Virus record (IMG/VR): IMGVR_UViG_2617270964_000016
Span: 1 to 37,320 of that record
Source of the DNA: a virus
Lineage: Duplodnaviria; Heunggongvirae; Uroviricota; Caudoviricetes
Strand: one strand, 5' to 3'
DNA: 37,320 bases
The position numbers and the translations under genes were made by a program. The notes beneath the pieces were generated by a model that saw nothing but the letters and a program-made list of their open reading frames with translations, did no database searches and was not told the origin of the DNA. This document shows positions 17,437-17,817 of the stretch, piece by piece (position 1 is the first letter of the stretch; each line of letters opens with the position of its first letter).

Positions 17437-17513
17437 AAAGACTGTAATATTTTACATATCTATATTTTGCCATATATGCATAATGGTTAATCATTAAACA
17501 AGAGAGGCTTTAT

Positions 17514-17762
17514 ATGGCATATGCAAAGTTAGTTTTTACTATTCTTGGTCGTGATGACAATAAATACGAAGTTTACGCACAGGGGGAACATGCAGAGCCG
17601 GAACGTGTGATTCACTATAAATTGGTTGAAATAGTTGGTGCAGATGGCAGTAATACAACTCCGATTTATGAATGGAAAGTTATAAATCCAAATATGACAT
17701 TTCCGGAATCAGTTGAATATCGAATTGCATCGAATTTGATTTGGTATCTTAGTAGACTTTAA
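17514..17762 (+). CDS. Hypothetical 82-aa cargo (moron) protein
   Basis: AGAGAGG Shine-Dalgarno before ATG 17514. AT-rich upstream region 17437-17513; followed by a strong intrinsic terminator. No recognisable motif. Confidence 0.4.
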   Translation: MAYAKLVFTILGRDDNKYEVYAQGEHAEPERVIHYKLVEIVGADGSNTTPIYEWKVINPNMTFPESVEYRIASNLIWYLSRL

Positions 17763-17788
17763 ATGTTTAGCTATCAAAGAAATATATA

Positions 17789-17817
17789 AGCCATCGATGA
17801 ATCATCGATGGCTTTTT
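17789..17817 (+). terminator. Intrinsic terminator (11-bp stem AGCCATCGATG/CATCGATGGCT, loop AAT, TTTTT)
   Basis: Seen directly, 27 nt after the stop of the 82-aa ORF. Confidence 0.55.

Follow-up and report, generated by a model that had tools for sequence, protein, structure and literature searches.

A probable moron cassette carrying a phrog_16949 gene between the lysis and packaging genes of a lambdoid Escherichia coli prophage

The late region of the window, by which is meant the whole 37,320-nucleotide stretch of viral DNA analysed here (IMG/VR record IMGVR_UViG_2617270964_000016), is that of a lambdoid E. coli prophage of the P27/HK97-like type, and the slot in it between the spanin gene Rz1 and the HNH endonuclease and terminase genes probably houses an autonomous accessory cassette, or moron. 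Comparative sequence analysis shows this predicted cassette to be made up of one conserved gene, a member of the family phrog_16949, and a strong intrinsic terminator. Upstream of it, all on the plus strand, lie the genes for the Q antiterminator (14784-15536; Pfam Antiterm, E 4e-54), a LydA-type holin (16129-16446), a lysozyme (16433-16909), Rz (DUF2570; 16893-17273) and, as the left neighbour, the embedded Rz1/LysC o-spanin (17164-17436), which was assigned from the RefSeq annotation of the near-identical locus in strain VTB96816v. The right neighbour, on the same strand, is the HNH endonuclease gene (17830-18180; PF01844, E 2.8e-16; also annotated in RefSeq), the first gene of a packaging block that continues with the P27-type small terminase TerS (18297-18800) and the large terminase TerL (18797-20530). 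A preliminary description of this DNA had placed the cassette between lysis and packaging genes, as is indeed the case with Rz1 on its 5' side and HNH/terminase on its 3' side, and had correctly credited its 82-aa ORF (17514-17762, plus strand, ATG start) with a good Shine-Dalgarno sequence, which is GAGAGG at 17502-17507, 6 nt 5' of the ATG.

The cargo slot between Rz1 and HNH

The slot was surveyed in 5,426 complete E. coli genomes. A 2.6-kb query centred on the ORF found prophage matches in 2,981 of them, and the ORF itself was covered in a single genome, that of strain VTB96816v, where its product is annotated as hypothetical protein WP_021534257.1. In blastn comparisons with four related prophages (L002, L003, L004 and L031), similarity of 89-97% ends within the 3' part of Rz1 (about 17351-17360) and picks up again at 17826-17830, at the HNH start codon. 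The replaceable segment delimited by these breakpoints and by its GC content is 469 bp long (17361-17829), and the last 25 or so codons of Rz1 fall within it. When only the flanking sequences were used as query, both flanks were found joined in 285 of the 5,426 genomes, and the best 60 of these 285 records fell into eight length classes. The slot was empty in 19 of the 60 (in strain MB10 only 26 bp separate Rz1 from HNH) and held seven kinds of filling in the other 41: plus-strand genes for hypothetical proteins of 169 aa (16 records), 168 aa (10) and 161 aa (5), an unannotated filling (4), a minus-strand YodC/DUF2158 gene (4), one other type (1), and the plus-strand cassette with the 82-aa ORF (1). 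A separate search revealed a further type in strain GF8, with two minus-strand genes for hypothetical proteins. The Rz1-HNH junction is a hypervariable cargo hotspot.

The base composition of the segment sets it apart. The GC content of 17437-17829 is 33%, compared with 47% for the lysis genes and 55% for the packaging genes; along the segment it runs at 0.29-0.37 against 0.45-0.6 in the flanks, in a window that has 51% GC overall. At third codon positions the 82-aa ORF has a GC fraction of 0.24, as against 0.64 for TerL. Breakpoints and composition together show the AT-rich 469-bp segment to be a replaceable module of foreign composition.

Several other features of such junctions came to light in the course of the survey. 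DUF2158/YodC genes occur on the minus strand in the Rz1-HNH slot of two unrelated backbones (8363-8865 in L005 and 1635-1817 in L003); in L005 the gene lies directly after a relative of the 82-aa ORF, together with a DUF6953 gene, in a layout like the non-contiguous tai/ati operon of phi80. Long hairpins of the form CATTAyCAAAGCC...GGCTTTGATAATG recur at cassette boundaries at the lysis/packaging junction of several prophages (L008, about 5890-5925; L029; L031, 6290-6343; L039, 6304-6343; L045, 3923-3935; L005, 10034-10046), the one in L039 having a perfect 17-bp stem and a folding energy of -26 kcal/mol. Such boundary hairpins might serve both in termination and as linkers for recombination. 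The boundary-hairpin motif GGCTTKDWTAATG, which is present beside relatives of the ORF, was not found anywhere in the window. Elsewhere in the late region of the window, the gap between Q and the holin gene (15537-16128) also has a low GC content (0.375-0.43), and in it terminator-like hairpins at 15642-15663 and 15933-15954 flank a Cys-rich zinc-ribbon ORF of 59 aa (15738-15917), whose only PHROG match is a weak, Lar-like one (E 0.002). The stretch resembles another moron-like unit, and it occupies the position at which stx is found in Stx phages.

The phrog_16949 family and its product

The 82-aa protein aligns over residues 1-81 with positions 1-81 of the 83-position profile of phrog_16949 in PHROGs v4 (E 1.4e-18, 68 bits), a family labelled there as of unknown function, and the same profile is matched by all 25 aligned relatives, with a best E of 6.7e-55. 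A word-indexed search returned only three clusters, at 99, 73 and 70% identity, and an exhaustive HMMER search of 1.84 billion representatives added six more members of 74-83 aa, five of them near full length and one truncated; three matches to long repeat proteins in that search were rejected as spurious. Profile searching brought the family to about 26 clusters at 90% identity, 24 with proteins of 77-83 aa and two with truncated ones of 53 and 74 aa, every one of them unnamed or annotated as hypothetical. The members come from E. coli/Shigella, Salmonella, Hafnia and Kosakonia, and from Atlantibacter by way of a genome scan. The window protein is 33-59% identical to most of them and 70-73% identical to those of the two nearest lineages (L005/L006 and L007), and on these alignments it represents a divergent and rare sub-clade of phrog_16949. 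A relative 44% identical to it, WP_000099430.1, is found in 17 of the 5,426 E. coli genomes, strain 042 among them; in 042 and in O103:H2 strains it occupies the same slot. No family member was detected in 50,697 phage records, using blastn with the window DNA and tblastn with the window protein and two distant relatives; neither the cassette nor its protein had a match in 72,556 plasmids; and a literature search with the protein accessions and the PHROG number retrieved no paper.

Ten positions are invariant across the family (L6, V7, T9, K17, E19, I33, H34, Y35, L37 and P64), the invariant motif reads KLVxT...KYExY...RIIHYKL, and residues 41-50 and 59-71 are the most variable parts. That the ORF might not be conserved as coding in relatives, a possibility raised in the preliminary description, is not borne out: between the window and lineages L005 and L007 pN is 0.16-0.17 and pS is 0.75-0.78, with synonymous sites saturated, and coding is conserved over the family's roughly 26 clusters. 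Values of dN/dS within clades are 0.08-0.36 and lend no support to diversifying selection, the sole exception being the C-terminal half of one pair, where the ratio is about 1.0. These substitution patterns show the ORF to be a real gene conserved as coding under purifying selection.

In contigs from IMG/VR, JGI, NCBI and Logan, the relatives nearly always lie after a lysis cassette and before the terminase genes, on the same strand. Their backbones include at least four unrelated types of packaging module (P27-type TerS with HNH, Terminase_2 with Terminase_6, Terminase_2 with TerL_ATPase, and lambda-type DUF1441 with GpA) and several types of lysis cassette. Some backbones, such as L031, have packaging genes 95-99% identical to those of the window, yet a family member only 45% identical. 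A conserved partner gene was sought and rejected, the 63-67-aa ORFs 5' of three distant relatives being unrelated to each other. The exception to the usual position is found in Hafnia alvei (L012-L014), where the family gene (6001-6252) borders an island, away from any late operon, and so could be expressed there only on its own; these copies keep both the upstream motif described below and a terminator. The Hafnia island also contains a 225-aa integrase fragment, a CAP12/PCTIR TIR-domain gene, YuaX and a gene for a 657-aa AAA_31 ATPase, and it adjoins the chromosomal Cho/UvrC and GNAT genes. In two Salmonella prophages (L015, 7234-8103; L016, 6450-8103), a TAGT (DpdA-like transglycosylase) gene lies between the family member and the terminase, as does a ParB_N gene in L016, a 95%-identical ORF being detected in L015; this suggests that DNA-modification cargo, too, is carried in the lysis/packaging junction.

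The window protein has a mass of 9.5 kDa and a pI of 5.2. It lacks a transmembrane segment, as had been claimed, the maximum Kyte-Doolittle value over 19 residues being 0.26. The earlier statement that it bears no recognised motif can be extended to the databases: scans of the protein against Pfam and NCBIfam gave no match; PADLOC-DB v2 (2023, which includes neither Tab nor Tai) gave no family at E <=1 for the protein or two of its relatives; Pfam scans of the 25 relatives gave only scattered matches at E 0.02 or worse; and the best match of the family profile among PDB sequences had an E of 0.38. AlphaFold modelling from 25 sequences gave a pLDDT of 88 and a pTM of 0.75 (with four sequences the pLDDT was 54), and the fold is confidently predicted to consist of four antiparallel strands (residues 5-11, 16-22, 29-40 and 51-58) and a C-terminal helix (72-81), the loop at 41-50 being modelled less confidently. 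Foldseek searches with this model returned a best E of 0.37 against PDB and of 0.31 against BFVD. Because neither sequence nor structure yielded an informative match, the function cannot be read from either.

Transcription signals and alternative explanations

Between the Rz1 stop codon and the ORF lies an AT-rich non-coding leader of 77 bp (17437-17513; 24.7% GC), in line with the roughly 80 bp reported earlier, and the element TATATGCATAAT singled out at that time is present in it, at 17473-17484. Strings resembling TATA boxes always occur in AT-rich DNA, and in E. coli DNA as AT-rich as this is a common target of silencing by H-NS. A consensus scan found five promoter-like sites in 5.5 kb, compared with 6.5 expected from shuffled sequence, so that promoter-likeness alone is not above chance in this region; the sole match in the spacer was TTGCCA and AATCAT separated by 16 nt (17467-17494; 9 of 12 consensus matches). 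Conservation is more telling. Aligned with the region upstream of the L005 relative, the window leader scored 19, where shuffled sequences had a mean of -1, a standard deviation of 3.8 and a maximum of 11.5; against L007 the score was 11, just under that of the best shuffle, and the region 3' of the stop codon aligned no better than shuffles among the close lineages. Just one long non-coding block is invariant among the window, L005/L006 and L007, and it lies within TATATGCATAAT: the 10-nt TATGCATAAT (17475-17484; alignment positions 96-105), which includes both the 8-bp palindrome TATGCATA and CATAAT (17479-17484), a hexamer agreeing with the -10 consensus at 5 of 6 positions. Inspection of the sequence 16-18 bp 5' of CATAAT revealed no good -35 element, and the TG that abuts CATAAT is out of register for an extended -10. 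Conservation of this block, at a divergence where synonymous sites are saturated, supports a candidate promoter here and does not prove one.

The more distant relatives have a different signal, TGnCAxxxT (n being G, C or A), located 41-46 nt 5' of the ATG in every distinct sequence and accompanied in several of them by -35-like hexamers with 4-5 of 6 matches; it looks like an extended -10 promoter. A reading of the TGGCA form of this motif as a sigma-54 promoter was rejected, as the spacing is wrong and the GC element is absent. In these distant leaders a 6-bp GC-rich hairpin follows immediately after TGnCAxxxT, with two compensatory pairs and modest covariation (L008, 5957-6003; L012, 5962-6003; and L018, L024 and L028), and it could be a stem-loop that stabilises the 5' end or a regulatory element. 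A structured 5' leader was also considered for the window clade and rejected, since the folding z-score is +1.2 and the GC-rich hairpin is absent; an Rfam scan of 17200-18000 found nothing near threshold.

The terminator downstream of the ORF is solidly predicted (17788-17819). Its hairpin (17788-17814) has a 12-bp stem with 6 G-C pairs and a 3-nt loop and is followed by a run of T residues; the strong hairpin described earlier is thus confirmed, with a stem of 12 rather than 11 bp. It has a folding energy of -17.4 kcal/mol taken alone, and the 71-nt region around it folds better than 200 of 200 shuffles (z = -4.1). The hairpin has the form of a terminator in the minus-strand direction as well, so that by its sequence it is bidirectional, and it ends about 10 bp 5' of the HNH start codon. 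Its exact sequence was found in only one IMG/VR contig, which carries the identical cassette. A terminator-like hairpin lies downstream of the family gene in all 25 distinct flank sets, the hairpin sequences being unrelated to one another. The two closest relatives have no strong terminator immediately downstream: the hairpin in L007 is weak, and that in L005 is 90 nt away and shared with a convergent gene.

The favoured reading combines these signals into a single scheme, in which a sigma-70 promoter in the 77-bp leader, with CATAAT at 17479-17484 as the best candidate, would drive the gene independently of the late promoter, and the terminator would stop the cassette transcript ahead of HNH and terminase, genes that it would be harmful to express in a lysogen. 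In the lytic cycle, polymerase modified by Q and arriving from downstream of the Q gene would read through both cassette and terminator, and by such read-through the gene would also become part of the late transcript. This combination of a promoter independent of Q, a terminator shielding HNH/terminase and late Q read-through is, taken jointly, judged rather more probable than not to operate in the window. A promoter of the gene's own is favoured because of the Hafnia context, the universal occurrence of terminators and the conserved -10-like elements.

Since the gene is co-directional with the Q-dependent late operon, late-only expression is a live alternative, and the main one. The gene would then be transcribed solely as part of the Q-antiterminated operon and would act in lytic growth, perhaps in counter-defence or anti-immunity by the same logic as phi80 AtiEcA, and the upstream conservation would represent 5' UTR or translation signals or a regulatory site. 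In every prophage context covered, the family gene runs in the same direction as the late operon, which would fit such a role, as would the weak -35 of the window and the lack of enrichment of promoter-like sites. In phi80 a 76-aa co-directional late gene in the same slot neutralises the phage's own defence gene, and in L005/L006 two cargo genes on the opposite strand, DUF6953 and DUF2158/YodC, come after the relative, in an ati/tai layout; the window slot, however, has no opposite-strand partner gene, and the family profile shows an hhalign probability of only about 0.1% against AtiEcA. A strong terminator after the ORF, and hairpins after every relative, would moreover be purposeless for a purely late gene, and the Hafnia copies keep upstream motif and terminator outside a late operon. 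We regard late-only expression as possible and rather unlikely.

The constant position between Rz1 and HNH/terminase over many backbones might instead point to an accessory lysis or packaging factor that tunes spanin/holin function or cos cleavage by HNH-terminase. Such a role seems distinctly improbable: the gene is missing, or unrelated cargo takes its place, in prophages whose lysis and packaging genes are 90-97% identical, the four or more unrelated terminase types and several lysis cassettes beside which the family occurs share no constant flanking partner, and the small ORFs upstream of distant relatives are mutually unrelated. Least probable of all, and close to refuted, is the idea that the ORF is a passenger without function, or one that arose by chance in AT-rich junk DNA. 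The great rarity of the cassette (a single E. coli genome among 5,426, and no match in 50,697 phage records or 72,556 plasmids) and the lack of an assignable function might be taken to favour it, but the full-length members hold to 77-83 aa (truncation being confined to two clusters, of 53 and 74 aa) with an invariant motif, purifying selection extends over Escherichia, Salmonella, Hafnia, Kosakonia and Atlantibacter, and the fold is predicted with confidence (pLDDT 88).

Comparison with known morons

Well-known morons of lambdoid phages include bor and lom of lambda and gp15 of HK97. Like these, the cassette is an extra unit in the late region, between genes that are adjacent in relatives, with a distinct base composition, its own predicted terminator and a candidate promoter; unlike bor, lom and gp15, to which its product is unrelated, it encodes a protein without membrane or lipoprotein signal. 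By the definition of Juhala and Hendrix, as quoted in PMC2629481, the cassette is to be classed as a moron on the comparative and compositional criteria of that paper, as judged from the alignments. The preliminary description had spoken of a classic moron configuration, and this holds as regards the replaceable slot, the foreign GC content, the conserved coding and the terminators, the promoter retaining the status of a candidate and expression from the repressed prophage that of a prediction.

The site upstream of the packaging module is itself a published moron/immunity locus in E. coli phages such as phi80, in which the slot contains a defence gene expressed in the lysogen from the opposite strand, and the co-directional late gene atiEcA counteracts that defence (PMC11364771). 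The phi80 Tai/Ati pair occupies the same slot as the present cassette, in a lambdoid coliphage with Rz1 on one side and cos/terminase on the other, and its small accessory genes are set within a late operon that depends on Q; the two differ in that the window slot has no TaiEcA-like gene on the opposite strand. The family profile gave an hhalign probability of 0.08% against AtiEcA (phi80 orf64), and tblastn with three family members against a phage collection including phi80 gave no match. A second parallel is Tab of Pseudomonas phage JBD26, an 83-residue tail-assembly blocker that is constitutively expressed from the prophage (PMC10884400) and is likewise a soluble moron product of small size (about 83 aa), whose gene lies in the late operon, in the same direction, beside the terminase genes. 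The host clade of JBD26 is another one, an anti-Tab-like partner was not identified at the window, and the family profile gave hhalign probabilities of 0.17% and 0.11% against the two 83-aa ORFs between terS and terL of JBD26, either of which is possibly Tab.

In so small and soluble a protein, free of any catalytic motif, the best guess as to mode of action is the binding of a partner protein in phage-phage or phage-host conflict. If one role is to be put first, it is, tentatively, that of shielding the lysogen from other phages; a role in counter-defence is somewhat less likely. The profile and structure searches gave no direct support to the lysogenic-conversion or defence role suggested in the preliminary description. 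It is conceivable, though rather unlikely, that phrog_16949 is an undescribed family of very small conflict proteins of about 82 aa, unrelated to any solved structure, tied specifically to the site where lysis and packaging genes meet in lambdoid prophages of enterobacteria and expressed both from its own promoter in the lysogen and in the late operon, which would block or protect a late step such as virion assembly, packaging or lysis of competing phages. Such a family would follow a Tab- or Tai-like logic with an unrelated protein.

The kind of element described here is textbook, and its slot has already been published as a moron/immunity locus. What is new is the exact delimitation of the cassette, its membership in the rare, position-faithful family phrog_16949 under purifying selection, and a confident fold model, to which no solved or viral structure gave a significant match. 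Small immunity and counter-immunity genes are increasingly coming to light where lysis genes adjoin packaging genes in lambdoid prophages. The present case contributes a sharply bounded, portable cassette and a compact family that would be cheap to clone and to screen against phage panels. Current understanding is not overturned by any of this. Should the protein turn out not to be a defence or anti-defence factor, the cassette would be one among many uncharacterised morons; should it prove to be such a factor, it would provide one more small-protein mechanism.
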